DNA of 64,000 nucleotides from the NCBI RefSeq assembly GCF_030684315.1, contig NC_081356.1:59566835-59630834 (forward strand). The letters run 5' to 3'. The stretch is from Stegostoma tigrinum. Lineage: Eukaryota. A model generated the notes under the pieces. The model ran no database searches and had not been told where the DNA came from. It saw nothing but the letters and a program-made list of their open reading frames with translations. Within the stretch, counting starts at the first letter, position 1; each line of letters begins with the position of its first letter. Shown in pieces: positions 6,373 to 61,438 of the stretch. Made by a program: the position numbers and the translations under genes.

Positions 6373-6539
6373 AAACAGAAATTGCTGGAGAAACTCAGTA
6401 TTAGTGAAGAAAAAATCAGAGTTAACATTTCGGGTCCAGTGACCCTTCCTTAGAAGTATTCTGCCAGACCTGCTGAGTTTCTTCAGCAACTTTAGGTTTT
6501 GTCCCTGATTTACAGCATCTACAGTTCCTTTGGTTTTAA
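6373..6539. mobile_element. Short palindromic PLE pLTR derivative (family 2)
   Basis: Exact 14-bp TSD tttgactcaggctt (6359-6372, 6540-6553). Inverted arms and a decayed hammerhead core. Confidence 0.8.
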
Positions 6540-25200: not shown

Positions 25201-26724
25201 CGATTAGCTTAACCTCGGTTGTTGGTAAAATTCTAGAATCCATCGTTAAGGATGAGATTTCTAAATTCTTGGAAGTGCAGGGTCGGATTAGAACAAGGCA
25301 GCATGGATTTAGTAAGGGGAGGTTGTGCCTGACAAACCTGTTAGAATTCTTTGAAGAGGTAACAAGTAGGTTAGACCAGGGAAACCCAGTGGATGTTATC
25401 TGAGAAGATGGGAACTGCAGATGCTGGAGAATCCAAGATTACAAAGTGTGAAACTGGATGAACACTGCAGGCCAAGCAGCATCTCAGGAGCACAAAAGCT
25501 GACATTTCGGGCCTAGACCCTTCATCAGAGAGGATGTTATCTTTCTAGACTTCCAAAAGGCCTTTGATAAGGTGCCTCACGGGAGCCTGCTGAGTAAGGT
25601 GAGGGCCCATGGTGTTCGTGGTGAGCTACTGGCATGGATTGAGGATTGACTGTCTGACAGAAGGCAGAGAATTGGGATAAAAGGCTCTTTTTCGGAATGG
25701 CAACCGGTGACAAGTGGTGTCCCGCAGGGTTCAGTGTTGGGGCCGCAGCTGTTCACTTTATATATTAATGATCTGGATGAAGGTACTGGGGGTATCCTGG
25801 CGAAGTTTGCTGCTGATACGATGTTAGATGGACAGGCAGGTAGTACTGAGGAGATGGGGAGGCTGCAGAAAGATTTAGACAGTTTAGGACAGTTGTCCAG
25901 GAAATGGCTGATGAAATTCAACGTGAGCAAATGCGAGGTCTTGCACTTTGGAAAAAAGAATTCAGGCAAGGACTATTTTATAAGTGGTGGGAAAATTCAT
26001 AAAGCAGAAGTACAAAGGGATCTGGGAGTGCTAGTCCAGGATTCTCGAAAGGTTAACTTGCAGGTTGAGTCCGAGATTAAGAAAGCGAATGTAATGTTGT
26101 CATTTATCTCAAGAGGATTGGAATATAAAAGCAGCGATGTGCTTCTGAGACTTTATAAAACTCTAGTTAGGCCCCATTTAGAATACTGTGTCCAATTTTG
26201 GGCCCCACTCCTCAGGAAGGACATTCTGGCACTGGAGAGTGTCCAGCAGAGATTCACATGGATAAATCCTGGAATGGTAGGTTTAATGTACGATGAACGG
26301 CTGAGGATCCTAGGATTGTATTCAGTAGAGTTTAGAAGGTTGAGGGGAGATCTAATAGAAACTTACAAGATAATGCATGGCTTAGAAAGGGTGGACGCTA
26401 AGAAGTAGTTTCCATTAGGCGGGTAGATTGGGACCCGTGGGCAAAGCCTTAGAATTAGAGTGGGGCAATTTAGAACGGAAATGAGGAGATGTTTCTTCAG
26501 CCAGAGAGTGGTGGGCCTGTGGAATACATTGCCACAGAGCACAGTGGAGGCCGGGATGTTAGAAGTCTTCAAGGCAGAGATTGATAAATTCTTGCCCTCA
26601 CAAGGAATTAAGGGCTACGGGAGAGTGCGGGTAAGTGGAGCTGAAGTGCCCATCAGCCATGATTAAATGGCAGAGTGGACTCGATGGGCCGAATGGCCTT
26701 ACTTCCACTCCTATGTCTTGTGGT
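22266..26724 (+). mobile_element. Full-length, inactivated CR1 LINE (ORF1 zinc finger/leucine zipper/SGNH esterase; ORF2 APE-RT)
   Basis: ORF1 from ATG 22572 (CCSC..CS*C, then VVVIGNSIIR..CLPGARV..VHVGTNN). APE motifs GITETWL, MGDFN, SDHN. RT motifs PQGSVLGP and FAADT. TSD ctaaag (22260-22265, 26725-26730). Multiple stops and frameshifts. Confidence 0.93.
25402..25531 (-). mobile_element. Solo PLE pLTR inserted in CR1 RT
   Basis: Exact 11-bp TSD ggatgttatct (25391-25401, 25532-25542) splits the VDVI|FLDFQKAFDKV motif. Confidence 0.9.
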
Positions 26725-28290: not shown

Positions 28291-29729
28291 CTAAGTTCAA
28301 AAGTGACATTTTGAACAGAAGGGTCCTTGACCGGTAAGTGGTGGTCAAGAATTTTTTTTCTTTAGCTTTAATTTCAGTCACCACAGTACCTATAACATTT
28401 TCGAGTAATGGCATTTAGGCTAGTGTAGAATATTACAGTACTGGGATTTAGAATGGTACCTAGACTGTTGCTTACAGAATAGTGTAATTAGTATTTTTTT
28501 AGTGAAAATCTAACATGAAACACCATCTAGTTAGCTGTAATGTAATTGAATTGAAATTTACTTTTAATTAAATATTTGCTGGGAGTAATAATGGAGGTCA
28601 GTAGGGTAGTCTGCTTCCACTGCAGAATGTGGGAAATAAGACACAGTTCAACATCCCTGACAATGACATCTGTAGAAAATGTGGCTCCTGTCGGACCATA
28701 TGGATCTGCTGGGATGGCAGTTGGACGTGCTTAGGAACATGCAGGAGACGGAAGGTGTCACAGACATAGAGTTTTAGAAATGCAGTCACATCCATGGTTC
28801 AGGCAGGTAGATGGGTGACTGCTGGAGGGGCAGCGCAAGAGTCCCCTGTGGCTATCCCCCTCCCTAACAAGTATACCGTTTCACTGGGGAGGGTTCCCCA
28901 TCAGGGAATGGGAACAGCAGCATCCAGAATGGTGGCACCACAGCTGGCTTTGTTGTACAGCAGGGAGGGTCAAAGTACAGTTAAACAAGTAGTAAGAGGG
29001 GACTGTATAGTTAAGGGCGCAGACAGACATTTCTGTGGCCGCAAAAGAGATTTCAGGATGGTGTGTTGCCTCACTGGTGCCAGTGTCAAGGGAGATCAAG
29101 AAGCCAGAGGTCACGGTACACATTGGCACTAATGACTAGGGCAGGAAGAGTGTGAAGTCCTGCTAAGGGATTTCAGGGAGTTAGGTAGCAAGTTGAAAAG
29201 CAGAAACACCAGGGTAATAATTATGGGATTACTCGCTGTGCCACATGCCAGTGAGGCTAGGAACAGGAAGAGAGTAGAGTTAACTACTTGCCTATAGCAC
29301 AGGAGGGAGGGCTTGAGGTATGAGGATAATTTGGAGGTCTTCCAAAAAAGCTGGAACCTGTACAAGAAGTATGGATTGCACCTCAACTGGCTGGGCACCA
29401 ATAACTTGGCAGGGAGGTTTGCTAGCATCACTCGGGAAGGTTTAAACTAGTGCGGCAGTGGGGCAGGAACAGGAGCAATAGAACTGCAAGAGAAATGACC
29501 AAGGAGTAGTCGGAGAGTAAGGCCACTAAGACTGTGAAGAAGAAGACAGGGAAGAGTTACTGAGCAAAAACAAAGTTGCTGGAAAAGCTCAGCAGGTCTG
29601 GCAGCATCTGTGGAGGACAAAACAGAGTTAACGTATTGCGTCCGGTGACCCTTCCTCAGAACTGGCGAAGGGTCAATAGACCTGAAACGTTAACTCTGTT
29701 TTCTCCTCCAGTGCTGAGCTTTTCTAGCA

Positions 29730-30965
29730 TAGCAAGGTGGAGAGCTGGATGAATACAGCAGGCCAAACAGCATCATAGGAGCAGGAAAGCTGACGTTTCC
29801 GTCCTAGACCCTTCTTCAGAAATGGGGAAGGGGACGGGGGTTCTGAAATAAATAGGGAGAGGGCGGAGGTGGATGGAAAATGGATAGAGGACAAGGTAGG
29901 TGGGAAGGAGATAGACTGGTCAAAGAGTCGGAGATGGAGCCAGTAAAGGTGAGTGTAGGTGGGGAGGTAGGGAGGACATAGGTCAGTCCAGGGAGGATGG
30001 AGAGGTCAAGGGGACAGGATGAGGTTAGTAGGTAGGAAATGGAGTGGGGCTTGAGATGGGAGGAGGGGATAGTTGGGAGCAAGGACAGGTTAGGAGGGCA
30101 GGGACGAGCTGGGCTAGTTTTGGGATACGGTAGGGGGAGGGGAGATTTTGAAACTTGTGAATATGAAGTGGGAAGAGGGGATAGGTGGGAGGAAGGACAG
30201 GTTAAGGAGGCAGGGATGAGCTCGGCTGGTTTTGGGATGCGGTAGGGTGAGGGGGGTTTTTGAAGCATGTGAAGTCCACACAGATACCGTTGGGCTGGAG
30301 GGTTCCCAAGCGAAATATGAATTTCTGTTCCTGCAACCTTTGGGTAGTATCGTTGTGGCACTGCAGGAGGCCCAGGAAGGACATGTCGTCTGCTGAAGAG
30401 AGGGGGAGTTGAAGTTGTTCGCGACTGGGAGGTGTAGTTGTTTAGTGCGAACCGAGTGTAGGTGTTCTGCAAAGCAGTCCCCAAGCCTCCGCTTGGTTTC
30501 CCCAATTTAGAGGAGGCCACAACGGGAACAGCGGATGCAGTATACCACATTGGCAGATGTGCAGGTGAACAACTGCTTGATGTGGAAAGTCTTCTTGAGG
30601 CCTGGAATGGGGGTGAGTGGGGAGGTGTGGAGGCAAGTGTAGCACATCCTGCAGTTGCAGGGAAAAGTGCCTGGTGTGATGGGGCTGGAGGGGAGTGTGG
30701 AGTGGACAAGCGAGTCACGGAGAGAGTGGTCTCTCCAGAAGGCAGATAAGGGTGGGGAGGGAAAAATATCTTTGGTGGTGGGGTGGATTGCAGATGGCAG
30801 AAGCGTTGGAGGATGATGCGTTGTATCTGGAGGTTGGTGGGGTGGTACATAAGGATGATGGGGATTCTGCTTTGGTTTTTATTTTTGCAGGGAGGGGTTG
30901 TGAGGGATGAGTTGCAGGAAATGTGGGAGACACAGTCGAGGGCGATCTTGACCACTGAGGGGGGG
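29730..30965 (-). mobile_element. Penelope-like element, left arm of inverted pair
   Basis: QSRIPIILMYHPTNLQIQRII, GIY-YIG region, then a pLTR with hammerhead remnant. Confidence 0.9.
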
Positions 30966-30972
30966 GAAGGTT

Positions 30973-32141
30973 TCAAGGACCACAAACTCGCCCCTCAGTG
31001 GTCGAGAACACCCTCAACTGTGTCTCCCGCATTTCCCACAACTCATCCCTCACATCCCCTCCCTGCAATAAGAACCAAAACAGAATCCCCCTCGTACTCA
31101 GGTACCACCCCACCAACCTCCAGATCCAACGCATCATCCTCCGACACTTCTGCCATCTACATTCCAACCCCATCACCAAAGACATTTTTCCCTCCCCACC
31201 CTTGTCTGCCATCTGGAGGGACCACGCTCTCCATGACTCCCTTGTCCGCTCCATAATCCCCTCCAGCCCCACCACACCTTTTCAATGCAACTGCAGGAAG
31301 TGCTGCACCTGCCCCTACACCTCCTCTCTCACCCACATCGCAGGTCCCAAGAAGGCTTTCCATATCAAGCAGATGTTCACCTGCACATCTGCTAATGTGG
31401 TATATTGCATCCGCTGTTCCCGTTGTGGCCTCCTCTACGTTGGAAAACCAAATGGAGGATGGGGGACCGCTTTGCAGAACACCTCCGCTCGGTTTGCACT
31501 AAACAACTACACCTCCCAGTCGTGAACCATTTCAACTCCCCCTCCCATTCCGCAGATAATATGTCCATCCTGGGCCTCCTGCAGTGCCACAATGATGCTA
31601 CCCGAAAGTTGCAGGAACAGCAACTCATATTCTGCTTGGGAACCCTGCAGCCCAACGGTATCAGTTTAGACTTCACAAGCTTCAAAATCCCCCCCTCCCC
31701 CTACCACCTCCCAAAACCAGCCCAGCTCGTCCCTGCCTACCTATCCTGCCCTTCCTCCCAACTATTCCCTCGTCCCACCTTAAGCCCCACCCCATTTCCT
31801 ACCTACTAACCTCATCCCACCCCCTTGACCTCTCCATCCTCCCTGGATTGACCTATCTCCTCCCTACCTCCCCACCTACACTCATCTTTACAGGCTCCCT
31901 CCCCATCTCTTTGACCGGTCTATCTCCTCTCCACCTATCTTCTCACCTATCCATCGTCTATCCGCGTCCCCCTCTCTCCCTATTTATTTCAGAACCCCCT
32001 TTCCCCCCGCCATTTCTGAAGAAGGGTCTAGGCCTGAAACGTCAGCTTTCCTGCTCCTATGATGCCGCTTATCTTGCTGTGTTCACCCAGCTCTACACCT
32101 TGTTATCCTGGATTCTCCAGCATTTGCAGTTCCTACAATCT
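30973..32141 (+). mobile_element. Penelope-like element, right arm of inverted pair
   Basis: CNCRKCCTC Zn-linker, FTCTSANVVYCIRCSRCGLLYVG (GIY-YIG) and EQQLIFCLGTLQPNG. pLTR with hammerhead motif at 32016-32045. Confidence 0.92.
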
Positions 32142-34315
32142 CTGAGCTTTTCCAGCAACTTTGTTTTTGTTCCTGATTTACAGCATCCGCAGTTCTTTTG
32201 GTTTTTATTGACAAGTTACTAAACATGGTAGGATTGGCAGTCTGAAGTAACTTAACGTTTGGATTGGGGGGCAACTTTTTCGTAGTGAGAGTGGATTGTC
32301 TGTGAAGGGAACAGCCAGAGGAAGTTGTAGACACAGGTACAGTTACAATTTTTAAAAGACTTTTGGACAGGTACGTGAATAAGAAAGATTTAGAGACATA
32401 TGGGCCCAATGCAGAAAAATGGGACAAGTTTAGTTTGGGAAACTTGCGTTAACATGAATGAGTTGGACTGAAGGGTCTGTTTCCATGCTGTAGGATTCTA
32501 TGACTATGATTCTTGTATGTATAACTACGATGTTGCAGCTATTACAGAGATTTGTTTGAGAGAGAGTCAAGACTGGTAGCTCAATGTTTGGGGATTTAGA
32601 TGTTTTAGGCGAGATAGATAGGGATGTAAAAGAGGGAGGTGAGTTGTATTACTGATAAGGGAGAATATCACAGCTGTACATCTTGGAGGGATCATCCAGT
32701 GAGTCCATATGGGTACAGCTCATAGGAAGAGTGCAAATCTTTTGAAGGGGTTTTACTACAGGAGTTTGAACAGCCAGTGGGAGATAGAACAATAGATATG
32801 TGGATGGATTATGGAAAAATTGTAAAAATAGCATTGTTGTCGTGGGAATTTTAGCCTCCCCTCTATACTGCCTTTGTGCCAGGGGCATGCATACGGGTGG
32901 AATTTGTCGGGTGCATCCAGGAGGGTTTTTTTTTAAAACAATGTGTAAATAATTCAACTAAGGAAGGGGCCATACTAGACCTGGTATTGGGGAATGAGAC
33001 TGGCCAGCTGATCAAAATTTCAGTGAGGGAATGTTTTGAGAACAGTGACCATAGTTCTATTAGTTTTAAGTTACTTATGGAAAAGGGTAAGAGCATCCCT
33101 GAGGTGAAAGTACTAAACTGGAGGAAGACTAATTGTGGCAATATTCAGCAGGGCTGGTTAATGTGCATTGGGTCACCTGGTTGAGGGTAAGTCAACACCT
33201 GTCATGTGGAAATCTTTTAAAGGCCATTTGATTAGAGTTCAGGATCAACATATTCCTGTGAAAATGAAGGATAAAAATGTGTGATTTGGGAATCTTAGAT
33301 GACAAAAGAAATTGTGAGCTAGGCAGAAACAGAAAGGAAACTTATGTAAAGTTAGGAAACAGAAGGCAGACAGAGCTTTTAAAGAATATAAAGAAAGCAG
33401 GAAAAAGCTTAAACAAGATGTTAGGTGGCTAAAAGGAGCCATGACATGTCCTTGGCAAACAGGTTTAGGGAAAATCCTAAGGCACTCTATACATATGTAT
33501 GGAGCATGAGGGTAGCTAGGGAAAAGATAGATTTACTCAAGGCCAAAGGAGGAAATTTATGCATGGAACTAGAGGAAGTGGATGAGGCCCTATAAATGAA
33601 AACTTTGCATTTTTATTCAAAGGATACATGGCACAGTGGATGGTGAGTCTCAGGAGGGGTATGTTGACGTTCTAGAGCGCATTGACATAAAAAAAACGAG
33701 GAGATGGGTGTTTTGAAAAGCATGCAGGTAAATAAGTCCCAAAGACTTGATGGGATCTATCCCAGAGTACTCAGAGAGACGAAGGATAAAATTCCTAGGG
33801 CGTTATATGACATTTTTGTATCCTCTTCAGTCACAAGAGAGGTCCTAGAAGACTGCAGAATAGCCAATGTTGTTCCTTTGTTCAAAAAAGGAGCAAAGAT
33901 AATCTGGGAAATTACAGGTTGGAAATTACAGCAATGGTAGGGAAATTATTAAAGACGATTGTTAGGGACGGGATTTACTCACATTTGGAAAACTATGGAC
34001 TTATTAATGATAGTTTACATGGCTTTTGTTGGGGAAGTCATGTCTCACAAACTTGATTGAATTTTTTGAGAAAGACAGAAAAGATGATTGATGAGGACAG
34101 GGAAATAGATGTCGTCTACATGGACTTTAGCAAGGCCTTTGATAAGGTTCCTCATGGCAGATTAAAACAGAATGTGAAGTCATATGGGATTCACAGTGAG
34201 CTGGCGAAATGAGTAAAGAACTAATCTGGTTATCGAAAACATAGGGATCAGAGTGTTTTTCTGACTGGGAGATCTGTCATCAGTAGCGTGCACAGGGATC
34301 ATTGCTGGGATCCCT

Positions 34316-34508
34316 GATAACAAAGTATGGGGCTGGATGAGCACAGCAGGCCAAGCAACATCTTCGGAGCATAAATGCTGACGTTTCGGGCCGAGACCCT
34401 TCACGTCAGCTTTTGTGTTCCTAAGATGCTGCTTGGCCTGCTGTGTTCATCCAGCCCCACACTTTGTTATCTTGGATTATCCAGCATCTGCAGTTCTCAT
34501 TATATCTT
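34316..34508. mobile_element. Palindromic pLTR element (family 1)
   Basis: Inverted arms. TSD attgctgggatccct / attgctggggtcctt, inside the CR1 QGSLLG motif. Confidence 0.85.
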
Positions 34509-36134
34509 ATTGCTGGGGTCCTTATCGTTTATAATGTGTATAAATGATTTGGAGGAGAATGTGGGTAGCCTGATTAGCAAATTTGCAGATGACACAAGGA
34601 TTGTGGGAGCTGCAGATAGTTAGGCATATACAACAAGATATACATAAGCTGGAGACTCAGGCAGAGAAATGGCAGATGGAATTTAATCCAGACTATTATG
34701 AGGTGATGTACTTTGGAAGGTCTTATGCAAGGGGGAAGTAACAATAAATGGCAAAACTCTTAGAAGCATTAACATTCAGAGGGATCGAGACGCACAGGTC
34801 CATAGTGCCTTGAAAGTGGAAACACAAATAGATGAGGTGATCAACAAGGCATATTTCATGTTTACCTTCATCAACTGGGGCATAGAATATAAAATTTGGC
34901 AAGTCATGTTACAATTGTATAAAATGTTAGTTAGACCAGGTTTGGAATGTTGCACACAGTTCTGGTCACCCCACTAACAAAAGGATGTGGAGGCTTTGTA
35001 AACAGTACAGAAATAGTTTACCAGGATGTTGCTCGATTTGGAGGGTATTAGCTGTGAGGAGAGACTGGACAAACTTGGTTTGTTTTCACTTGAATGTTGG
35101 AGGCTGAGGGTGACCTGATAGAAGTTTACAAAATTATGGGACAAATAGATAGAATGGATAGTCAGAGGCTTTTTCCTAGAGTAGAAATATCAATTACTAG
35201 CGGGCTTGGGTTTTAGGTAAAAGGGAGAAAGTTTAAAGGAGATGTGAGAGGCAAGTTTTTACTGAGAGAGTGGTAAGTGCCTTGAGTGTGCTGCCAGTGG
35301 AGGTGGTAGAAGCAGATACAATAGCATCATTTAAGAGGCATCTTGACATGATACAAGAATAGACAGGGAATAGAGGGATATGGACTGTGTTGAATCAAAA
35401 GGTTGTTAGTTTAGTAAATTGTTATGTGTTGGCGCAGGCTTGGAGGTCTGAAGGGCCTTTTCTTATGCTGTTCTGTCCTTTGTACTTTGTTCTCATTTCT
35501 CATGACTCAAATACACGTTTTCTTTACTGTTAGTCATTGTGGAAAGATCTGGAAACTGTCACCAGATATTTCAATTGGTTTCTGTTTGATTCTGTTATGC
35601 ATGACCACCAAATTACCTTGGTCTATTTCTGAGTGGAGGTGTTTTGCATGACCTCATCATCCTCCTTACAGAAGATTGTTTTGCTTAAAGTTAGAGGAGA
35701 AATTTCAAAATATTACTGCCTTGTGAAGTCCAGCGTTTGTAACAATGGTTAATTAATAGCTTTCACTTGGAGGTGTTGATTTCCTTGTCTGTATTGAACA
35801 ATAAGTAAACTGCATTTCATAGTCTGGTCACTGTACAAGTTTAGCGAAGATCTCTAGACACCCTTCCACCTCATTGTCTTAATACATTCGCCAGAAATCC
35901 AAAGAATATTTTGTGTTAGGTTTCACATGTGACATAATATTGGGATGCCAGTATGAGGGTACAAGTTCTGTATGAAGCAATTAACAATTGGTTTGCAGGG
36001 TGAATTTGCACTGAAGAATATGTCTAATCAATGTATAGTTATTGACAACAGATTAGATTTGCACCTTTATCATTTAGTCTTTAATTGGTGATAAATTAAG
36101 CAAGACCTCTCAAAAGCATCTGGCAGCAATATAA

Positions 36135-36268
36135 GAGATAATGGGAACTGCAGATGCTGGAGATTCCAAGATAATAGGATGAAGGGTCTAGGCCCGAAAC
36201 GTCAGCTTTTGTGCTCCTGAGATGCTGCTTGGCCTGCTGTGTTCATCCAGCCTCACATTTTATTATCT
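36135..36268. mobile_element. Palindromic pLTR element (family 1)
   Basis: Flanking direct repeat tggcagcaatataa (36121-36134, 36269-36282). Confidence 0.88.
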
Positions 36269-39200
36269 TGGCAGCAATATAATCCTTTATTTTGTAGTGC
36301 ATGGCTGTTTTGTTTACTATGTGAGCCTTTTAAAAAATTACTGTGTAGCACTGCGTATGTATGTCAACTGGAAGAGGCTAAGTTGTAGACAGCCTGTTGG
36401 GAATTTCCAGCTTGCTGTGTGGCTGTGCAGCTCAGGTGGAACATGCCACACAACCATCACATGATTAAGATGGATCTGCAGAAATTGGAAAAACACAAAA
36501 GGAAGCAAACTATTTATAATATTTGAAAATACCCTTTGGTGTTCCTTTCGTAATGTACATTTTTTATTCTTCAAATATTTTTTGCCCATTGCTCAGAGTA
36601 TAAACCTATGAACCCATATCATTGATGATGATTTTGTAGTGTTTATAAAGCTGCTTTCTACAAGGTGAAATTATAAAATTATGGGAAAGTCAAAAGTAAA
36701 AGAATTACTTTTCCTGCCATCTGTTAAAATATATAAGTATAAATACATTGTCATAAGGATGAATAAAATCTGTATAACCTGTATATTCTGTTATGAAAGC
36801 AGCGTTGTGATGTGTGCCTGGAAGCAAGGGCTGATCGATATGGTTGAGAAGGGATGAAGGAAAATCTGTTTTAAGCATTCCCAGCAACAAAGGGAATTTG
36901 AGAATAAAAGAAAAATACCACAGATACTGGAATAACTTATTCTATCAGGAAAATCTTAACAATGGTTAAATCACATTAAACTAAAAGCTGAGCTGCAGGA
37001 AGATTGATAGACTTTGTTAGTCAAAGACAGCCGATAACCAAGGAAAAATCTTGTGTGCTATGAAATCAGACAGAGGCTCTTGGTATTGAGATTATACATC
37101 ATTAAACTGCACTCAGTGTTGCTCAAAAACTTTAATCCTCCAGAGTCTCTAGGCATTATTGCATTCCTCCAGAGTATCCTCTGTATCCCATTTATAGTTT
37201 CTTTCAGCCTGTTCACATTCCTTTGTGATTCTTCAAAAGTTCTCTCCTTTTTCTGTACTTACCGCAGAAGCGTTTTGATTTCTTATCAGTATTTGAACCA
37301 AAAGCAATGGAGTGGAACAATGCTCAACTTTGTTCGATGAAGTGGACCACTTACTGTGTCTATTTGCAGTGACAGGAGGTTGGTCATCTTGGCCTTCCCC
37401 AGCCATCCTTCCCAAAGATCAGCTGACCAGCCATTCTGATGGAGATAATAAACAGGCTGAAATAATGAATTTGGGCGTACCCCTTAGTGTACTCCTCAAT
37501 GGCAGTACAACCCTCCCAGCTCCTGCTTTCCAGCAGCTGGTGTAGTAAAAGCTGCCAAGCAGTGACAAAAGTAGACGCTAATTGTGCACTCAAGGTCCTC
37601 AATTTGCTGATGGGTGGGTAGACTATCAGATATCGTAATGTGGGGTGGGGAGGAAAGTGGTAGACTAGAACCCATTTTATTCTGTGTCCCCAGTCTTTAA
37701 AAATAGTCATTTAGTGAGAGGCACTTTGCTATTTCCCTTGAGTTGCAGCTCGTCTCAACAACAAGACAACCTACCTTTACAAAGCAGGTTAATGTCGGAA
37801 AATGTGATTAAAGTACATTACGGAAATGAGTATCAAGCTAATCTTGATACCAAGTAACATTTTACATCTGAGTATCAAAATTATACTTATAAAGGTAGTT
37901 TTTAAGTACCATCTTAAAGAAAGAAAGAGTTGGAAAGGTGATGAGGCATAGAGTGGGAGTTCCAGAAATTAGGACACAGGCATCTAATGACATCTAATAT
38001 GGGTGCCATTTTCTTAAATTAAAAAAAAATTTCTCTGACAGAATGTACTAGAATATAGAAGGAGCTTTAAAGGATTGACTACCCCCTGGATAGTAAGAGA
38101 TTGAACTCTCCCCTGGGTTATATATGTTGTTCCTGAGAATTGAGCAGTGAGGGGAAACAGGAATTCTTCATACTGGAAATTATGCTTGCTAATAGGTAAT
38201 CAATGTACTCTGAGGGCAGTAAGCTGAATGAAATGTACCAGCTTCATGGTAGCTGAAAGGGTTAAACCAGAGGGAGCAGGCTCAACACAATTTTCATTAA
38301 ATAAAATTGATGAGCAATCTTGAATGGGAGAGACACAGAGGCATTTTATATGACACATGATATATGTGTGGCCAAACATATAGTGTCCCAGGTGCTGGAG
38401 TTACTGAATATGTGGGAGAGATATGTTTCAGAGTGTGCTTATAGGTCACAGGGCATCCATCAAGCTCATGCAAATATCAGATTGATGAGTTTCAGTCTGT
38501 CTTTTCCAGTCTGCTTCTTTTCTGGTTGACTAATATCTTATAACATTTATTATGATGTTAGCGTTTAATATAGTTTAGTTTACAAACAGGTAAATGAGTG
38601 ATATTTTCCATGCTGTCGCCATCATTTTGTTCCTTTCCTCGTTATCAGAATTCTAAAGACCTGGGTCACAGCAGCAGAACTAACAGAAAAACCTTTGACA
38701 TTGCGAGTGTGACAACAGGTCATACCGTTCATTTATAAACAAGAATCCAAGACAAATCATCTCTAATGCAATGATTTAGAAATAATTGCATTAGTCGCCA
38801 TTAGACTTTGTGGGAGCTAACATTTTTAAAAAAAAATCACATGGATCATCAATTCTAGTTGTGTGAAAATATCTTGTCAACCCCAAATTAACAAAATAAT
38901 TTTTAATTAAACAGAGGCCTTAAAATAATCCATCAGTAGGAATAACAATGAAGTTTTGACTTCTGATTGCAAGATAAACATATTGTGATTTCTCTGCTTT
39001 TTAAATGATGTGTACAATTTGATTCATTTCTGCATTAGTTTCTGAATTCCAACTTTTGAAAATAAGTCACATACCCAGGATTAAAATAAAGTTCATTTAT
39101 TATTCAGGGAAAATATTTGTAAATTTTCTGTAGAAGAAATAATGACTAAAGACAGTCTTAAAAATCATTTGATTAATTAACCAATTTTGCAGAAATGGTG

Positions 39201-39284
39201 GTTTTGAAACGTATCTAGGACTTTTATTGTTTGATATTCTAGTTCTTCTTTAAGAAGAAAGAAGTTGTAATTGTGTAGCAACTT

Positions 39285-39530
39285 ATTACATTTGTGGATT
39301 GAGATTTGAGAGATCCCACATGTTTGACCCTTGGAAGAAGCCAGTTGCACCGAAGTTTAGTGCAGCTGTCACCTTGATGGCCATTGGAATAGGATAGTCA
39401 TCTGCCTTTTCAGTTTATGTCCCATTTCAGCAGTTGACACATAGTGATAGTGTACTGGGACATCCTCAGTCTGGAATGGCAATAAACCTCATTAATCTGG
39501 GGAAATGACATTGAGGATGATAGAACCTTA
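39285..39530 (-). pseudogene. Harbinger/PIF transposase N-terminal relic
   Basis: Minus-strand translation gives ..YCHSRLRMSQ..CQLL..PIPMAIKVTAALNFGATGFFQG, resembling the HARBI1/Harbinger HTH region. The element may extend to a TIR-like gaaaattctgccc at ~42150-42165. Confidence 0.65.
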
Positions 39531-42500
39531 ACCCTGTAGCACCATTACATTTGAGGGAACCTGCAGCCATGACTTCTTCTTCTGGAGGCTATTTAGCAGC
39601 CATTGGAAGTTGCCGCTGCTCCTGGTCTTGCTGACACATTTGTTGTTGCTCAATTTGTCTGTGCCTTTGTAGTACACAATGAACCCAGTGATGATCAACC
39701 CTGTTGCAGTTGGATGCATTGTTCACTTTTCCAATGAACCTGCATGGGGATTATCAGAAACAGAGCCTGTGCTTATTAATGTGAACAGGCACCATTCATA
39801 TCACACACAAATGCCAATATAACATGGTTCTTGATATGTGGACCACTCCAACAAGAAGAATCATGGCACGTCTGCACATGGACATTTGGCATAGTTCTGA
39901 TACGAACAGCATAAGCCACACCTTACGAATACAGCAGGAGATTGTAAACACAGGTAGGATTAGTGAAATGTTGCCTCTCACCCCCAACCCCCAGTTCTTC
40001 AAAGAAAGGTAATATTGTGCCTAAGAGTATGTTGGCATACATTTACAATTTAAGGTGAGAGGAATTCAGTTCTGTGCCCTTGTGCAGCCACTGAGAACTT
40101 TGTCTTTGTGAATTTGTGGCCCATAGGTGACAGCTTTAAGACCTCGATTAGTTACTTCTGCTGCATAGAGATGATTGTGATAATTTGTAATGACCAATCA
40201 CATAGTCAAAATTGTTTGTGGCCAAGATTGTATCCAGTATAGCTGGTCACTGCATGTGTTTCACAGGCAGAGTTCTATCATTGCAAGTGCCTTTAGCGCT
40301 TGTGTAAGTGTCTGATGAATGCAATGTCTATTTAAGGGGCCTCACATTGACCTTAAGTACAACTCACATTCTCAGGGAAAATTACTTACACTACCCACTC
40401 CAGTTGTGATGGCAGCTATTTTTCATTTCCATCGCACATTTACAGTTTGGATGTGGCTGGAACATGACACACTTTACACAGTCAGTTCTTTAGCCTGTTA
40501 GTCGAGGTGACTTGCTAAACCTTCATGTACTTTTCATCCTTATGTTCCATGTTGAACCCATCAATTCCAACCAACTCTTTCACTTTTTTCAACATTTGCT
40601 GATGTAATGTGAGCTTCACTGCTACTTCAGTGTTTATTCCCCCTCCCTTATTGCCAAGGAGTAGTTAAGAATCAACCATAATTGTTGTGGGGTCTGTAGT
40701 CACGTGCAGGTCAATCCAGGCAGGATGGCAAATTTCCTTGCCTAAAGGACGTTAGTGAACTGCCTGGGTTCATTGCAAGTGGCTGCATGGTTACCATTTG
40801 GCTAGCTTTTGGTTCTAGATATTTTCTTTATTAAATTCAAACATCACCATCTGCCCTAATGGAATTTGTAACTATGTCCCCAGAAACAGTAACGTGGGTT
40901 TCTGCATTGCTAGCCCAGGCACATTAGTCCACCATTCCCTCTTCATCTACCAACATTATGCCTGTGTCCTGGCCTACAGCTTATCCTTGGCAATTATCAT
41001 GATGCATTGTCTTCCCATCAAAGCCAGGGTGCTGATAACCATTGATAATATACTCCTGCTACAGTAACCTGTGCTATCCAATATTTTATTGGTTCCCATC
41101 CTTGTATATTGAGCTTTTTCCATGTCATAATTTTACCTGCATTCTATCCCAACATGCGTCCTCAAATCCCCATGATTGACTTCCCCAAAATCCCTACCAC
41201 AGCTGTAGCCCTTGATAACCCACATGACTTTCATGGACCAGACCACCCATACTGACTGTTGGCCCCTGCCTACTCCATGCCCCCCACCCCACTCACATGG
41301 AATGACAGCCTTGACTGATGAGTGACCAGATCTCTGACTGATGACTGTGTCGCGCCCAAACTAATTTCCTGTCAATCCCCTCACTGATTGCACACTGATT
41401 GTGGTTGGGGCCCTGGCTGACAACAGTCCACTCCCTTGACTGATCATTGCTGTCAACATTAACAAGGTAATAGGTTTGCTGTGTGCTAAAAGGCAAAATG
41501 AGACAAAAGTATGGTGAGAATGTAAAGTTCTGAATGAGGCAGAAAAGTGCTGAAAGGAAAGGGAGTGTCATTGTCAAGTAGTTATGACTTAAATGAACAC
41601 TAAGAATAGATTCACCCTGTCTGATGCGTGAACTGGGTGACTCTCAGTGTGCAAAGTGACCTGATCGCAGCATTACAATGAAAAGTGCTCCAAAGTGCAG
41701 CAGTTAAGTGGATAACTGTACTCTAAGTGAGTCAGCGATGTGTAATCGTGCATTAAGGCTTGTCTGTACCTGATACCAACCTTTTTGACTGCCCATGGAT
41801 TGTGCTCTGAGGGGTTAGGTACTGCTGTTCAAGATGCAGGCTCCAAACAGCAAGTGGGGAGCCATAGCCATGCAGTCACTCTTTAATGTTCTTGTTGGGA
41901 ATTAGTATGGCCTACTTTCTTTCTGCTAGCTGAGAGAATAGCAAACTGCACGCAAATGAGGCAAGAATAGGTACTAATGAAATATTAATGCATGAAAATG
42001 GGCCTATATCCACTCATCATTGACAGTCTCATCTTGCCATTGAAACCCTCAGTGGAAAGTCAGACCTTTTTTGTTTTCGTCAAGGATCCAATTTTTCTAA
42101 TCTTTCAATATGTTTTCAGTTGAGCTGTTAAGACCATTTCTTCAGGGGCTGAGAAAATTCTGCCCAACATTTATGTCCAGGCAGACAGATTCTTGATTTG
42201 ATAGCCCAGCCAAAAGATAGCAGCTTTGATTGTACAGCATTCCTGCATCACAGTGTCCATGCTATCAAACTATGGAGAAAATTTTGAACTGTTAACTTTC
42301 TGACTCAGAGAAAAGGATGTTACCACTGAAACTAGCTGATGAAACTCCTTTACAGGCAATATTTGCCAGTGTTGATTTATCCACATTTAAAAGATACTGC
42401 CATCATAATCCCAGTAGACCATAGGGCTGTTCTCTCATAAGAGAGAGATGGCTGGTGTGAGTCTAACTGAGGGTCACCATCCCTGGGGGAAGATGCAAGA

Positions 42501-42684
42501 ATGAGAACACGATGTCTTCATGGTAACCTCAACTCATGCAGGAATTGAATCTGTGCTGTAATGTCATAATGCATTGCAAACCAGCTGTCCAGTCAATTGT
42601 GCTAACTGACACCCTTACTTTTATGATATAACAAAACTTGATAATATTTGATATTCATTTGATATAATCATAATTGATAACATA

Positions 42685-42904
42685 ATAAAATGTGAGGCTG
42701 GATGAACACAGCAGGCCCAGCAGCATCTCAGGAGCACAAAAGCTGATGTTTCGGGCCTAGACCCTTCACCATGATCTCTGATGAAGGGTCTATGCCCGAA
42801 ACGTCAGCATTTGTGCTCCTGAGATGCTGCTGGGCCTGCTGTGTTCATCCAGCCTCACATTTTATTACCTTGGATTCTCCAGCGTCTGCAGTTCCCATTA
42901 TCTC
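42685..42904. mobile_element. Palindromic pLTR element (family 1)
   Basis: Flanking direct repeat taattgataacata (42671-42684, 42905-42918). Hammerhead core at 42778-42807. Confidence 0.9.
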
Positions 42905-43380
42905 TAATTGATAACATACCTGGCTCTTTAAACCCACAGTGACTTGCATGATCACATGGACAACTGTACCAGAAATTTTCTCTGAGGATCTTTTGATCTG
43001 CTACTATAAGTGCAATAGAACCTCAGTATTGATTATTTAGCAGTATCTGAGGCTGCCCTTCTGTAATGTGAAAATTATACATGATTGACACATTAAGACA
43101 CAGAACTTTAAAATAATTGATTCAGTTTTTTTTATAAAAACAAGCAACAATGTTGCAAGTAGCTAACAGGGCTGTGAACATCTTCAGAGAGAAATAAAAC
43201 TTAACCCTTTCTTTTAAAACAAATTCATACGTTGGTTGTGGGTGGCTAAGCCAGTATTTCTTGGCCTTTTCTAGTTGCCCAGAGGATAGCTAAGAGTGAT
43301 CCACATTGCTATAGGCCAAACCAGATAAGGACAGCAGATTTCCTTCTACAAAGGACAGTCCTGAAACAGATAAGTTTACA

Positions 43381-44315
43381 GTGAGGTTGCTGCTAGCTTG
43401 CCAAGCTGACGGGTTATCGTGCAGACATTTCGTCACCATGCTCGGTAACATCATCAGTGCGGTCTTCGATGAAGCGTTGTTGTTCTGCTCTGCTATGATC
43501 CAGTCGGTTAAGTTGGGTTGTGTCATTTCCAGTTCGATTTTGCATGGGGTCTAATTCCACATGTTTGTTAATTGCATTCCCGGTTGAAAACTAGGCCTCT
43601 AGGAATTCCCAAGCATGTCTATGGTTGGCTTGAGCTAGGCTGGCCATGTTGTCCTAGTTAAATTGATGGCCTTCGTTGTCTGAGTGCACTGATATGAGAG
43701 AAAGTTTGTCATGCTGTTTTGCAGCTAGCTGGTGTTCATGCATCCTGATGGCTAGTTCCCTCACAATTTGGCCAGTTTAATGTTTGTTGCAGTCATTGCA
43801 AGGTATTTTGTAAGCTATGTAGGTCCTGCATGTGATGGGTATGGGGTCATTTGTCCTTGAGAGTGTTTTGTCGTAGTGTGGCTGTGGGTTTCTGGGCTGT
43901 CCTGACTCCTAGTGGTCATAGGAATCTCATTGTCAGTTCTGATATGTTCAGAATTCATCAGGGTAGAATGAATGATCAACAGGGAGTTCTAACCAACACA
44001 GACCAAATCCTCAATTTCCACACTCATCACCCCAACGTCCGCAAACAAAGCTGTGTTAGGACACTATTCAAATGGGCCACAACTCGCTGCAACACACCAA
44101 AACTATGCAAGAAAGAGGAGGAGCACCTATACAAGGTCTTTGTTAATGGATATCCCAACAACTTCGTCCGCTAGATAGGCAACACCAAGAGGACACAGTA
44201 CATCCCAATACACTGGCCACACAACCATATCAGAACATACCAGAACTGACAACGAGATTTCTGCAAGCCAATAACCTCATCCACAACCCAAGCCATAAAT
44301 CTTTGCAAGAACCTT
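43381..44315. mobile_element. Rearranged Penelope-like element (fourth family) inserted in a SINE
   Basis: Minus-strand 3' end and GIY-YIG at 43381-43955. Plus-strand RT-thumb TNTDQILNFHTHHP..KQSCVRTLF..NGYP at 43990-44260. Termini are inverted. Confidence 0.8.
43421..43460 (-). ncRNA. Minimal type I hammerhead ribozyme motif
   Basis: GCA-CUGAUGA-U-GUUACC-gagcau-GGUGAC-GAAA-UG-UC-UGC: 3-bp stem I, 6-bp stem II, loopless stem III. Confidence 0.7.
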
Positions 44316-44845
44316 AAAGGTTTTACAACAATCGACACTGTTGCATGGTGACCATTCAGTTAGCCTTTTAATCCAGATTTTGTTGAATTCAAAGTTCACC
44401 CTCGGCCATTGTGGGATTCAATCATATGTTTGATGAGGTCTGGCTGATATCCATAGAACATTAGGCTGGGATCCTGGATTACTCACCCAATAACATTACC
44501 ACAACACTACCGTTTCCCCATAACTTACTGTCAGTGATCTGATGTCAAAAACAGGAGTTTTTAAATAAGTAAAGTACTGTCATGACATAATGGTGTACAA
44601 ATTAAAAGCATTAACTCTGCTTCTGTCTCTCCCCATGGTTGTTGGGCAACACTGAGTATTTCATAGAATTTCTGCTTTTATTTCAAATTTCCAACATTCA
44701 TGGTACTTTGTTCTGGTATGTCATAAATTCAGAGGAACATTTCAAAAACAATAAATGGCACGCACGATCTGCCAGTTTGTACACCAGTTTTAATGCCTGA
44801 TTGCTGTGTCCACACCAAGTATATGTTAACAGGTATATTATTTCA

Positions 44846-44849
<4 letters not shown>

Positions 44850-44895
<46 letters not shown>

Positions 44896-44906
44896 TATAC
44901 ATACAC
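44850..44906. repeat. (TA)n/(CA)n microsatellite
   Basis: Directly visible. Confidence 0.95.
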
Positions 44907-44949
44907 AAACTTTCCTCTAAACATAATTCTATTAAAACAGCACCAAATA

Positions 44950-50012: not shown

Positions 50013-50219
50013 GTGATAAAGGGAACTGCAGATGCTGGAGAATCCAAGATAATAAAGTGTGAAGCTGGATGAACACAGCAGGCCAAGCAGCATCTCAGGA
50101 GCACGAAAGCTGATGTTTCCCCCTCTCTGATGAAGGGTCTAGGTCCGAAACGTCAGCTTTTGTGCTCCCGAGATGCTGCTTGGCCTGCTGCGTTCGTCCA
50201 GCTTCACACTTTATTATCT
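50013..50219. mobile_element. Palindromic pLTR element in the last NTRK2 intron
   Basis: TSD tgtactactaaagga / tgtactactatagga (49998-50012, 50220-50234). Hammerhead core on + strand at 50127-50156. Confidence 0.9.
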
Positions 50220-56784: not shown

Positions 56785-58916
56785 TAGAGATAATGGGAAC
56801 TGCAGATGCTGGAGAATTCCAAGATAATAAAATGTGAGGCTGGATGAACACAGCAGGCCAAGCAGCATCTCAGGAGCACAAAAGCTGACGTTTCGGGCCA
56901 AAACCCTTCATCAGAGAGCGAGTTGTTGAGGGTGAGGACGAGTTCAGCTAGGCGGATGAGAGTGTCGGTGGAGGGGGACTGGTCGGGCCTGCGGGACAGG
57001 AAGAAGCGGAGGGCCTTGAGGCCATCTGCATGCGGAATGCAGGTGTATAGGGACTGGACGTCCATGGTGAATATGAGGTGTTGGGGGCCAGGGAATTGGA
57101 AGTCCTGGAGGAGGTGGAGGGCGTGGGTGGTGTCACGGACGTAGGTGGGGAGTTCCTGGACCAAAGGGGAGAAAATGGAGTCCAGATAGGTGGAGATGAG
57201 TTCAGTGGGGCAGGAGCAGGCTGAGACGATGGGTCGACCAGGGCAGGCAGGTTTGTGGATTTTGGGAAGGAGATAGAAACGGGCCGTGCGGAGTCGGGGA
57301 ACAATGAGGTTGGAGGCTGTGGGTGGGAGGTCCCCTGAGGTGATGAGGTCGTGAATGGTGTTGGAGATGATGGTTTGGTGCTCGGGTGTGGGGTCATGAT
57401 CGAGGGGGCGGTAGGAGGTGGTGTCGGAGAGTTGGAGTCTGGCCTCGGCGATGTAGAGGTCAGTGCGTCATACTACCACTGCGCCACCCTTGTCTGCGGG
57501 TTTGATGGTGAGGTTGGGGTTGGAGCGGAGGGAGCGGAGGGCTGCCCGTTCTGCGGGGGAGAGGTTGGAGTGGGTGAGAGGGGTGGAGAGGTTGAAGCGG
57601 TTAATGTCTCGACGGCAGTTGGAGATGAAGAGGTCGAGGGAGGGTAGGAGGCCTGGGGGTGGTGTCCAGGAGGAGGACTTGTGTTGGAAGCGGGTGAAGG
57701 GGTCAGTGGAAGGAGGGTTAGGTTCCCGGTTGAAGAAGTAGGCGTGGAGGCGAAGGCGGCGGAAAATCTGCTCTATGTCCAATCGTGACTGGTATTCGTT
57801 GATGTGTGGTTGTAGGGGGACAAAGGTGAGCCCCTTACTAAGGACTGACCATTCGTCCTCAGTCAGTGGGAGGTCTGGGGGGATGGTGAAGATGCGGCAG
57901 GGCTCAGTGTGGCTGTCTTCTCTGGGGTTGCTGGCTGTGGAGGTTGTGGGCGGAGCGATGAGGTCGTCGGCCATGGGCGGGGTTCCGTCGGCCGTGGGCT
58001 GTGGGCGGGGTTCCGTCGGCTGTGGGCGGGGTGGGTGGCAGCAGCTGCGGTGAGGGTGGTGTGTGAGGTGTTGTACCTGGAAGCGGAGGTGGTGACTGCA
58101 GCAGCGGTTCCGGAAGTTCTGTGGCCGGCGGAGGCGGATGTGACGTCATCCGTGGGGTCTCCGGCCATGTCCTCATGGTCAATGGCGGCGGGTGCATGGT
58201 GGGGGAGGGGCAGGGACAGAGTCGGGATTTGGGAGGCGCAGGAATCCTCTTGTGGGTGGCAGGGGCCAGTGAGTTGGTTGTACTTACGATTTTTGGTGTC
58301 CAGTAAAGCTGAGTGAAACTGGGTATTCAGTCTGTGGATCCTGCGGAGGATGAAAGACAGCAGATGTCCTTTGCAGGTCTGGGAGAGGGAGGCTCTGAGC
58401 TGGGGCAGGCTGGATTGCAGTGTCTGGAGGTGCCGGCGCATGGTTGCAAGTGTCTGTTTCAGGACTCGCAGGGAGAAACGCTTCTGAAGGGTCTGAATAT
58501 TCTGGGTGTAGAGGTGGTCACGGTTGGGGCCAAATTGGGAAGGCTGAAATGTGGACCATAGTCCCTTGGGGATGATCTGGTTCCCTAGGCAGGTGCTGAG
58601 GAAGGTGATGTGGCTGTGGTACCTGGTTTGCTTCAGGACATGGTCGAGCAGTTTCAAGGCCGAAGAGATTACAAGAGAGTTGCAATGGGAGAGAGATTCC
58701 CTGAGGTTGGTCCGGAGGGAGGAGGGTAACTTCTTCAGGTTAGGCATCCCTGGAAGAGGCTTCGCAGTGAGGTTAAAATAGTATCAGAGATAATGGGAAC
58801 TGCAGATGCTGGAGAATTCCAAGATAATAAAATGTGAGGCTGGATGAACACAGCGGGCCAAGCAGCATCTCAGGAGCACAAAAGCTGATGTTTCGGGCCT
58901 AGACCCTTCATCAGAG
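56785..58916 (-). mobile_element. Young, internally deleted Penelope-like element with direct pLTRs
   Basis: Exact 15-bp TSD aggtaagtcagctga (56770-56784, 58917-58931). pLTRs at 56786-56918 and 58786-58916. ORF from ATG 58747 with VLSKGLTFVP, IKPADKGGAVVV and TMDVQSLYTCIPH; it has a frameshift and a stop and is cut before the catalytic DD. CpG-rich. Confidence 0.93.
56885..56916 (-). ncRNA. Minimal hammerhead ribozyme motif in pLTR
   Basis: CU-CUGAUGA-A-GGGU-uuug-GCCC-GAAA-CG-UC-AG. Confidence 0.7.
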
Positions 58917-61047
58917 AGGTAAGTCAGCTGAAAGGTTTTGTGACACTATGGATAATGCCATAGCTTGTGTGTCATAAGTTCCAGATTTGAGTCTCATTTT
59001 CAGATCTGATGGTGGTGGATCACACAAACAAACAGATTGATTGTTGGCAGAGAAATCTTTCAGCACATGTGGAATAAGAACAAGATAGTCTCCTGGTCAG
59101 CCCTGTTCAATGCAGAATGGCACCCCTCAAGCTACAGTCTCTTGCTTCAGGTTAGGACCCATTCCAGGGGAATCAAACCTGAGATTACAGATATAAGCAA
59201 GTACTTGTTGCCCTTTCACATTTCTAGAAGTGAGCAGCCTCCAAAGTTCTGCTGCCAGGAATGAAACCATTTCTGCTGAGACTAGTATTGTTGCTGTAGG
59301 GGACTAGAATACCAGTAAGAAACTAGATGAAAACAGATGACGCAGATCTACTCCAAAACCTTACACATTAAAACTAATTTATGCCACTGTAGGTCAGTAA
59401 ATCTCTACCTGGTTGTGTATACATTCATACTGGTTTTTCTTTCTGCTGCCAGGACTGAAAGCCATAGGTCTCTGTGCTACTTTATCAGCAACAGCCAATT
59501 GGCCAGCAGATGTAAGTACTGCCTCTCAGAATTGCTGAACCAATCAGGGGGCCAATATCTTAGCCACTTTGGCACCTTGGATTTAGGAAATTATCCTTAA
59601 TTGGTGACCTAACTTTTTTCCTTATTCATTCATGGAATTAGGGCGTCGCTGACCAGGCAGCATTTATTGACAGTGGGCTTATGGTCATCATTAGACTCTT
59701 AATTCCAGATATTTTCTTGAATTCAGATTCTACCATCTGCCTGGTGGGATTCGAACTTTATCTGGGTCTCTGAATTAACAGTCCAGTGATAATACCACTG
59801 GGCCATTGCCTCCCCAGTTGAAAGCCATTCCACCACCGTTTTTGAGATTTTCTACTTCCAATTCCTGGTTCACCTTTAGAGGGCAGGTAAAATATAGTCC
59901 AAACTCTAATTCAGAGCAGGAGTTCCTTACGTCAGCAGAGAACACCTCCATCATCCACCACTGATAACAGGGGATCAGAGAGGTGCATATATTGCATGCT
60001 TCTATTTCTGTGGACAATAAGAAGTGCCAGAAAGTAAGATTCCATTGCTGTAAGGCTCTTATAGGTATAGATCATATTTCTGAAACCAGTAAGGAATATA
60101 ATAATATACTTGCCAAGACTGCCAAACAACACACTTATTCTTTATTCATTAAAGGGATATGGGTGTCACTGGCTAGGCAGCATTTATTGCTCATCCCCAA
60201 TTGCCCAGAGGGCTGTTCAGAATCAACCACATTGCTGTTTTTCTGACAATCAACAATTAATTCATCGTCATTGTTGGATTCCTAATTCCAAATATTTTGA
60301 ATGTAATGATGACAATGAATCCATTGTTGATTGTTGGAAAAGCTCACCTTGTTCAATGTCCTTTAGGAGAGGAAACTGTCATCCTTACCTGGTCTGGGCT
60401 ACATGTGATTCCAGACCCACAGCAATGTGGTTGACTCTTAACTGGCCTCTGGGCAATTAGGGATGGACAATAAATGCTGCCTAGTCAGCGGTGCCCTCAT
60501 CCTGTTAGTGAATAAAGGATAATTTGTGTCCTCAAGCATTTGAATTCATAGCTTATGATAACACTGCCCTGAACACAGGTATACAACTGCTGCTGGTAGT
60601 GAAAGGAAAGGTTAAGTCTATAAAAAGATCACTATGAATCTGACAGCAGACCTAGAAAAAAAACATAAATTTATAACAGTTAATGGAAAGCAGAGCTGAT
60701 TTGATTCTGTTCATTGATAGAAAAAAAGTCAACCTGCCACTTAATCATAAAGTAGCAAGTGTTATGGCTTACTGTTTATAAGGATTTTACAAAAAGTACA
60801 CTTTACCTCTTGAATGCTTACTCGACGATGTTGGGGGCAAGACAAAAGTTGTACATACACAAACAGAACATTTTGTCTCTCCATGAGAGAGCTCACTCCT
60901 TTAGTTAAAGAGATAGATGTGTGCCAACAGAATTGAAACAAATTGGCTCAAATTTAATTGAGATAAAACAGCTAATATGAATTCTGATCATATTAGATTG
61001 GTAATTTGGTCTGTTCCTAATTCCAAACAAAATTGCACATTTGTGGA

Positions 61048-61438
61048 TAACAAAGTGTGGAGCTGGATGAACACAGCAGACCAAGCAGCATCTCAGGAGC
61101 ACAAAAGCTGACGTTTCGGGCCTAGATCCTTCCTCAGAGTGGGGGATGGGGAGAGGGTTCTGGAATAAATAGGGAGAGAGGGGGAGGCGGACCGTGAAGA
61201 AGTTACCTTCCTCCCCCCGGAAACAACCTATCTTCTTTTCTCTCCATCTTCGGTCCGCCTCCCCCTCCCACCCTATTTATTCCAGAACCCTCTCCCCATC
61301 CCCCTCTCTGATGAAGGGTCTAGGCCCGAAACGTCAGCTTTTGTGCTCCTGAGATGCTGCTTGGCCTGCTGTGTTCATTCAGCTCCAAACTTTGTTATCT
61401 TGGATTCTCCAGCATCTGTAGTTCCCATTATCTCTGAA
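61048..61438. mobile_element. Palindromic pLTR element with ORF-derived spacer
   Basis: TSD tgcacatttgtgga / tgcatatttgtgga (61034-61047, 61439-61452). Inverted arms of ~145 bp. Confidence 0.9.
61306..61337 (+). ncRNA. Minimal hammerhead ribozyme motif in pLTR
   Basis: CU-CUGAUGA-A-GGGU-cuag-GCCC-GAAA-CG-UC-AG. Confidence 0.72.

Follow-up and report, generated by a model that had tools for sequence, protein, structure and literature searches.

A stretch of 64,000 nucleotides from Stegostoma tigrinum (contig NC_081356.1, positions 59,566,835 to 59,630,834; hereafter the window) contains, at positions 42685-42904, two head-to-head ends of a Penelope-like element (PLE) inside a 14-bp target duplication. 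We consider it likely, with a probability of about 0.7, that this is a minimal head-to-head PLE insertion made by twin priming, run-off and end joining. Reverse transcription would be primed by both 3' ends of a staggered cut, at two start sites internal to the element RNA, and both complementary DNAs (cDNAs) would run off the RNA 5' end, copying its first 90-130 letters. A single RNA or a single protein dimer would give rise to both cDNAs, with displacement of the inner copy by the outer one, and the cDNA ends would be joined by end repair via 1-6-nt microhomology or short fillers. Throughout, +1 denotes the first C of the hammerhead core CUGAUGA (core C, or C3); if both copies stop at -3, the end that remains is self-complementary, and this would be the commonest join.

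The initial annotation had described the insert as an inverted pair of pseudo-long terminal repeat (pLTR) pieces between direct repeats, and this was confirmed. The two inverted arms are 96% complementary across 89 nt, the insert totals 220 bases, and an exact 14-bp direct repeat flanks it (42671-42684 = 42905-42918). The right arm carries a tail of ~36 nt which the left arm lacks. The following features were assigned:

42671..42684, + strand: target-site duplication, left copy, 14 bp, exact match to 42905-42918
42685..42771, - strand: tail-less arm, pLTR about +2..+88/91
42772..42774, + strand: 3-nt spacer at the inversion point (gap of 3 between the arms)
42775..42904, + strand: tailed arm, pLTR -2..+127/128
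42778..42807, + strand: minimal type I hammerhead motif (CUGAUGA, stem II, GAAAC, GUC), assigned by motif only
after 42805, + strand: predicted scissile bond of this hammerhead
42869..42904, + strand: ~36-nt tail between the two recurrent 3' ends sharing ATTATC
42905..42918, + strand: target-site duplication, right copy

The outer end of the tail-less arm shares 3 nt of microhomology with the duplication, and the 3-nt spacer may be a short templated piece.

Element identity and paired architecture

Copies were counted in 1.164 Mb of the genome, comprising 18 blocks of 50 kb at round coordinates and 264 kb around the window. Among 265 census arms, the 182 with a pLTR identity of at least 86% were kept, which gave 39 head-to-head pairs and 104 unpaired arms. 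Statistics on 5' ends are based on 91 young arms (identity at least 91%); an enlarged set of 145 includes 54 further arms from locus flanks, with targeted elements dropped.

Judged from their sequence, the arms are the 3' end of an endonuclease-bearing PLE. The PLE origin that had been proposed for the palindromes is borne out by a natural full-length copy (L117), which has a 645-nt partial tandem and an inverted copy in front. Its open frame of 1,192 codons contains reverse transcriptase (RT) motifs, a CxxC ahead of the YIG and His residues downstream. Pfam RVT_1 matches this frame weakly (E 4.5e-5, below the curated cut-off), and the GIY-YIG nuclease was assigned by motif because Pfam gave no GIY-YIG match for the frame. 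A CX2-5CxxC linker between RT and nuclease has been described as a mark of the Neptune or Nematis clade (PMC8557442), and the CX4CxxC linker between RT and GIY-YIG in our frame (residue 926) points to one of these two. The hallmarks of endonuclease-bearing PLEs are present together, namely an open reading frame with RT and C-terminal GIY-YIG (CCHH motif), pLTRs in partial tandem and a tail at one end. A minimal hammerhead motif is present in the pLTR, its core being intact in 36 of 74 young arms; Rfam gave no hammerhead match, only sub-threshold microRNA-type hairpin matches. No stop interrupts the PLE frame of L117 (1599-5175, minus strand) in the pyrimidine-rich 3' region, the TATA-like box or the hammerhead; the frame ends at about +42, and its protein has a Pro/Thr/Asp-rich repeat near the N terminus.

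This family, called A, is young, with all 40 scored 5'-body matches at least 99% identical, and abundant, one 27-mer upstream of the core having 76,317 exact genome matches. A second and older family, B, has its own hammerhead and its own tail; its arm ends in the window were read by eye. The family together with older relatives makes up about 10% of the sampled DNA.

A tailed arm is combined with a tail-less arm in 38 of the 39 pairs (p 7e-11), and seven of eight family-B rows are asymmetric as well, two of them likely duplicates. The earlier description of one complete arm and one lacking the terminal ~33-40 nt, in two families, is thus upheld. The 3' ends are fixed at two places, +91-96 and +125-131, each represented once in a pair and each on the motif ATTATC. 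A target duplication of 11-17 bp was found in 35 of the 38 tailed/tail-less pairs (14-16 bp in 26); at the target site no motif emerged except a lack of G at the first duplicated base. Both target 3' ends are joined to priming sites with the duplication intact, as twin priming has it, and tail pairing, fixed 3' ends and duplications all agree with the stereotyped PLE integration route that had been suggested. Seven unpaired arms with a duplication end at +92-94, and therefore the inner end is itself a priming site. Among the 104 solo arms a duplication was seen for ~15, many solo arms being parts of larger composites. Pair sizes are continuous from 119 to 2,518 bp. Twenty-seven of the 39 pairs are shorter than 400 bp and have no coding sequence, a density of ~23 per Mb (20 of them in the 0.9 Mb outside the window block), which extrapolates roughly to ~70,000 per genome.

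The two arms of a pair also stop together: in 25 pairs both end at or 3' of -8, in 13 both reach past it, and a single pair is discordant (p 2e-9). Minor variants common to both arms numbered 31, compared with a shuffled mean of 5.8 and maximum of 20. Because of the strict asymmetry, the joint stopping and the shared variants, we favour one RNA copied twice. Twin priming from two separate RNAs, by an asymmetric dimer with each subunit fixed to one start site, appears unlikely but fares best among the alternatives. It needs no strand displacement and fits both the asymmetry in 38 of 39 pairs and a dimeric enzyme, PAc (Poseidon, Anolis) being predicted to be dimeric (PMC11167929). The near absence of discordant pairs (1 of 39) and the shared minor variants nevertheless suggest one template, which a dominant source locus could mimic.

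The stop at -3 and the scissile bond

The 5' ends of the arms are sharply concentrated. Thirty-one of the 91 young-arm ends fall at -8..+8 (17 nt) versus nine in the flanking 68 nt (p about 1e-14), about a tenfold enrichment (hazard 0.030 per nt versus 0-0.003 in other bins). In the enlarged set 46 of 145 ends lie in the same interval, and in family B 20 of 56 ends lie at -5..-1. Ends spread uniformly along the pLTR, which would have spoken against a breakpoint bias, were not what we found. The modal stop is at -3, 3-4 nt 5' of the core and not at the scissile bond, and pattern searches of the genome returned 12,119 ends exactly at -3.

The base in front of these ends is most often an extra G. 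Among 200 matches listed for -3, it was G in 144, T in 43 and A in 13 (hand count); these rows are from the start of contig 1, include 21 mutated long copies and contain perfect palindromes on both strands, and many of the G's could be templated by the other arm. Where the 13 upstream letters did not look like the element (sorted by eye), G was found in 21 of 29 rows, some of which are element-derived further out. Control ends at +1 were preceded by G in 27, A in 22 and C in 44 cases (a tandem array counted once), and an A-versus-G Fisher comparison gave p 4e-8. In family B, a G precedes the initiator-like A in 52 of the 100 matches listed (p 3e-8). In family A a TATA-like box has its first base at -33/-34, and two family-B copies have one that starts at -32; the distance to the modal end is 29-31 nt, and the two families differ in upstream sequence. 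The modal end itself lies on what we take to be an initiator-like motif, which is a stretch of pyrimidines in young A copies, CCATTT in old ones and TCAGTT in family B. In L1, full-length insertions carry an additional G at their 5' junctions, which has been described as reflecting the cap (PMC11702581). Because the extra G before -3 resembles this signature and a TATA-like box lies upstream, we infer that a capped RNA begins at -3, which would be an RNA polymerase II start.

The 5' pLTR of three body-containing copies begins at the TATA-like box or slightly inside it (L153 at -29, L176 at -33, L179 at -34). Long copies carry C>G at -4 in seven cases (L257, L260 and five more), C>A in one and C>T in 13; the C>G change may characterise a subfamily or may have been left by copying of the cap and subsequent strand transfer. 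A 3' splice site was rejected as the cause of the stop, since AG is absent at -4 in family A and no upstream exon is common to the short copies. Initiation by RNA polymerase III is also unlikely, as the transcript would terminate at T4 (+32..+35), short of the internal start sites.

A roadblock or release of the reverse transcriptase at -3, caused by a protein or structure 5' of the hammerhead or by a cDNA hairpin, is a little less probable than the use of two RNAs. The segment +1..+30 is predicted to fold into one hairpin, a leading enzyme clearing the block would explain why the arms stop together, and many body-containing copies pass -3. Such a block does not, however, predict an extra G at -3 only, and it leaves the TATA-like box at promoter distance in two families unexplained.

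The ribozyme had been proposed as the breakpoint, and this holds for a minority of arms: the main stop at -3 is neither a cleavage nor a fold-back site, while a smaller pile lies at the scissile bond (+29). Among the 99 matches listed with ends within +24..+33, 45 lie at +29 versus 2-11 at each neighbour (hand count, one deletion row dropped). An equally long palindrome at +24 accounts for only 3-4 rows. Twelve rows at +29 have no microhomology and are preceded by A in eight, G in three and T in one (hand count); the pile is without the extra G seen at -3. Scaled up, this class would number roughly 3,000-4,000 arms, about one third as many as stop at -3. In the young-arm sample one of 91 ends is at the scissile bond, and our reading that nothing happens there was dropped after the targeted count showed the excess. 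We regard +29 as a real minor peak in the sequence, which is consistent with cleavage products as templates and does not prove it; the stop would then mark the 3' cleavage product of the ribozyme used as template.

Several observations weigh against this scheme. Scars in DNA are the only source from which start site, cap and cleavage are read, and the copy at 42685 is itself without the extra G at its 5' end. In family A the box reads TATTTAT, which departs from the canonical form, and it is located within the tail of the reading frame. Among young body-containing copies, 19 of 30 start upstream of -28 and only three at -1; many templates or products extend past -3, which would need tandem read-through or strand transfer. 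At +29, 27 of the 45 rows represent one junction centred on a 4-nt palindrome, whose annealing might occur with no cleavage; microhomology is present in six more. Only two of the 145 ends of the unbiased sample lie at +28..+30, and the predicted folds, as monomer or dimer, are not those of an active hammerhead. The variants shared between arms could come from gene conversion or a common subfamily. PAc used both start sites without strand preference in vitro, and no reads were found to end at the hammerhead cut (PMC11167929). Since PAc is without strand preference, strict tailed/tail-less pairing is not by itself predicted.

Joining of the arms and copies in the window

The initial annotation also considered fold-back at the ribozyme, in which a tail-primed cDNA self-primes near the hammerhead and copies itself into the second arm. 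Such self-copying would account for the variants common to both arms, and 14 of 39 pairs have a 1-6-nt overlap at the junction, some of them resembling abortive snap-backs. A copy cannot, however, outreach its template, yet in 15 of 38 pairs it is the tail-less arm that extends further 5', by more than 10 nt and up to 1.1 kb (the tailed arm does so in six). A tail-less first strand, in turn, cannot supply the tail, and the inner end also ends solo copies with duplications. Fold-back is largely refuted as the sole route and ranks just below a roadblock in probability; short fillers may derive from it.

It had been stated that the centres all differ and that each copy formed independently, with no master of the miniature inverted-repeat transposable element (MITE) type. 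Within the window the centres do differ, and the junction at 42685 is unique, with one exact match in the genome. Across the genome, a few junctions favoured by microhomology are found repeatedly: one is present in 464 exact copies, and the perfect -3/-3 junction accounts for 35 of the 100 matches listed (24 loci). These recurrences would suit a non-autonomous palindrome, similar to a MITE or retrozyme, that had multiplied from one or few masters. Among 30 copies of the 464-copy junction, however, the tail lies on one arm in 11 and on the other in 16 (three incomplete); the copies belong to at least three subfamilies, whose markers are found on both arms. Seven copies of the -3/-3 junction that we examined differ in polarity, subfamily and duplication. 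Because both polarities and several subfamilies occur, the recurrent junctions are, on these sequence markers, convergent and not due to MITE copying, in line with the independent formation that had been claimed. MITEs and DNA transposons are bounded by terminal inverted repeats on either side and generate a short duplication of fixed length. Here, the tail lies outside the inverted repeat, duplications vary over 11-17 bp, junction polarity is mixed and sizes are continuous over 119-2,518 bp. Amplification from masters is refuted for the tested 464-copy junction and hardly credible as a general account; other junctions may include a clonal subset.

Further copies in the window were assigned as follows:

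6373..6539: family-B palindrome with a 14-bp duplication; tail-less arm to about -1, tailed arm from about +55 (ends by eye)
25402..25531, - strand: solo tailed arm, 5' end -2..-4, 11-bp duplication
29567..32210: family-B palindrome centred at about 29660 and split by a nested family-A insertion
29730..32141: head-to-head family-A copy of 2.4 kb that retains GIY-YIG remnants, layout as in the short palindromes
34314..34508: family-A palindrome, arm 5' ends about +5 / +24, 13-bp duplication
36135..36268: family-A pair; the tailed arm is limited to +86..+128, the tail-less one covers +3..+96
50013..50219: family-A palindrome with a 15-bp duplication; arms begin at +21 (tailed) and -8 (tail-less)
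56785..58916, - strand: composite single insertion, 15-bp duplication
61048..61438: family-A palindrome, centre at -56/-81, 14-bp duplication

The direct repeats that had been listed were recovered, at 13-15 bp, for the copies at 6373, 34316, 36135, 50013 and 61048; for the family-B host copy at 29567..32210 no target duplication was found by script. The size range of 130-390 bp does not apply to the latter either, as it is not a short contiguous insert but is split by the nested 2.4-kb family-A copy, which has its own 16-bp duplication (29714-29729 / 32142-32157). Family-A insertions inside family-B pLTRs were observed here (29730-32141 within 29567-32210) and at L244. Centres at the hammerhead were seen for six of the seven palindromes, with at least one arm end within -8..+8; that of the copy at 61048 lies 56/81 nt upstream, and this palindrome contains a 31-nt filler resembling the 5' body of the element. 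In L1 twin priming, the second primer anneals internally and two pieces without overlap result. The arms at 36135..36268, as we place them, barely overlap, as in classical twin priming.

The solo copy at 25531 and the copy at 58916 had been reported to end at the hammerhead, and their 5' ends indeed lie at -2..-4 and -3/-4. The composite at 56785..58916 consists of a piece of pLTR to +128 plus 2 kb of 5' body, joined to a second pLTR piece to +128, and the 5' stops of its two pieces, at -3 and -4, are effectively one point.

In contigs of two DNA runs on 34000-43500, swamped by repeat copies, no empty allele was found among the listed joints. At about 43424-43457 on the minus strand we observed a third hammerhead family with a different stem II (eight motif matches in 1.164 Mb). 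Positions 60135-60522 hold an inverted pair of another repeat (111-nt arms, 81%), also present at 9711-9953 and 11632-11792, and 44822-44925 is a (TA)n/(CA)n microsatellite.

Relation to known systems

Inverted pLTRs and a short 3' tail belong to the published layout of Penelope, as had been noted (PMC3846280, PMC8557442, PMC2377424). The copies resemble Pen2a_Av (PMC3846280), the general scheme (PMC8557442) and D. virilis Penelope (PMC2377424) in their head-to-head inverted pLTRs and variable duplication. With published endonuclease-bearing PLEs they share a 30-40-nt tail on one end, a hammerhead in the pLTR and a pLTR that supplies the promoter. Unlike published PLE insertions, as far as these are described in the sources cited, 27 of 39 pairs here are shorter than 400 bp without coding sequence, at ~23 per Mb, and arm ends cluster at a position resembling a start site, with an extra G. 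The copies here have a TATA-like box, whereas D. virilis Penelope has been described as TATA-less (PMC2377424). A literature search covering few subscription journals found no title or abstract describing twin priming, a cap-marked stop or such density for PLEs.

It has been shown that PAc nicks and extends both strands in vitro, with two internal start sites bounding the tail (PMC11167929). The copies are alike in these respects and in having a hammerhead about 100-130 nt upstream; PAc differs in clade, and no inverted products or strand-to-site assignment are described for it in the part of the report cited. L1 twin priming (PMC11702581) offers a further parallel, with two primed ends, discrete duplications, an end-joined inversion junction and an extra G at full-length 5' ends. 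Unlike in L1, both arms here mostly repeat one sequence, start at fixed RNA motifs and have no poly(A).

PLE-derived hammerhead repeats without coding sequence are also described as Schistosoma dual minimal hammerheads (PMC4209133) and non-LTR retrozymes (bioRxiv 10.64898/2026.07.22.740005). Opposite-strand hammerhead pairs 100-700 bp apart have been noted in the former work, though not dissected there (PMC4209133). Non-LTR retrozymes are head-to-tail arrays with type I hammerheads, in contrast to the head-to-head copies of the window. An array near 140,329,000 on contig 1 (L331, 3037-4320) does fit this description: eight near-identical head-to-tail 166-bp units, +1..+166 of family A, run from the hammerhead to the body start, the last being truncated at its inner end. 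By its sequence, the array is retrozyme-like and made from the 5' end of the PLE.

The element class and layout are known; the unusually readable end statistics make two mechanistic questions testable. The published PLE mechanism has been called undefined, or self-priming has been proposed (PMC3846280, PMC8557442); the origin of the inverted repeats and tails has likewise been called undefined and in vivo cutting by minimal hammerheads open (PMC8557442, PMC4209133, PMC11167929). The copies give sharp tests, each event providing a tailed and a tail-less arm, an inferred capped start at -3 and a minor stop at the scissile bond. In repeat annotation, such stubs could be mistaken for MITEs or microRNA hairpins. 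More tentatively, and with the odds somewhat against it, the stubs, which would number tens of thousands, may record the whole PLE cycle in a vertebrate germline. A dimer would prime both DNA ends at two AUUAUC sites on one capped RNA and displace the first copy, the minimal hammerhead would cleave in vivo, and any 3' pLTR with a TATA-like box would seed stubs. Run-off copies would transfer to the 3' repeat, rebuilding pLTRs in the manner of retroviral strong-stop DNA.
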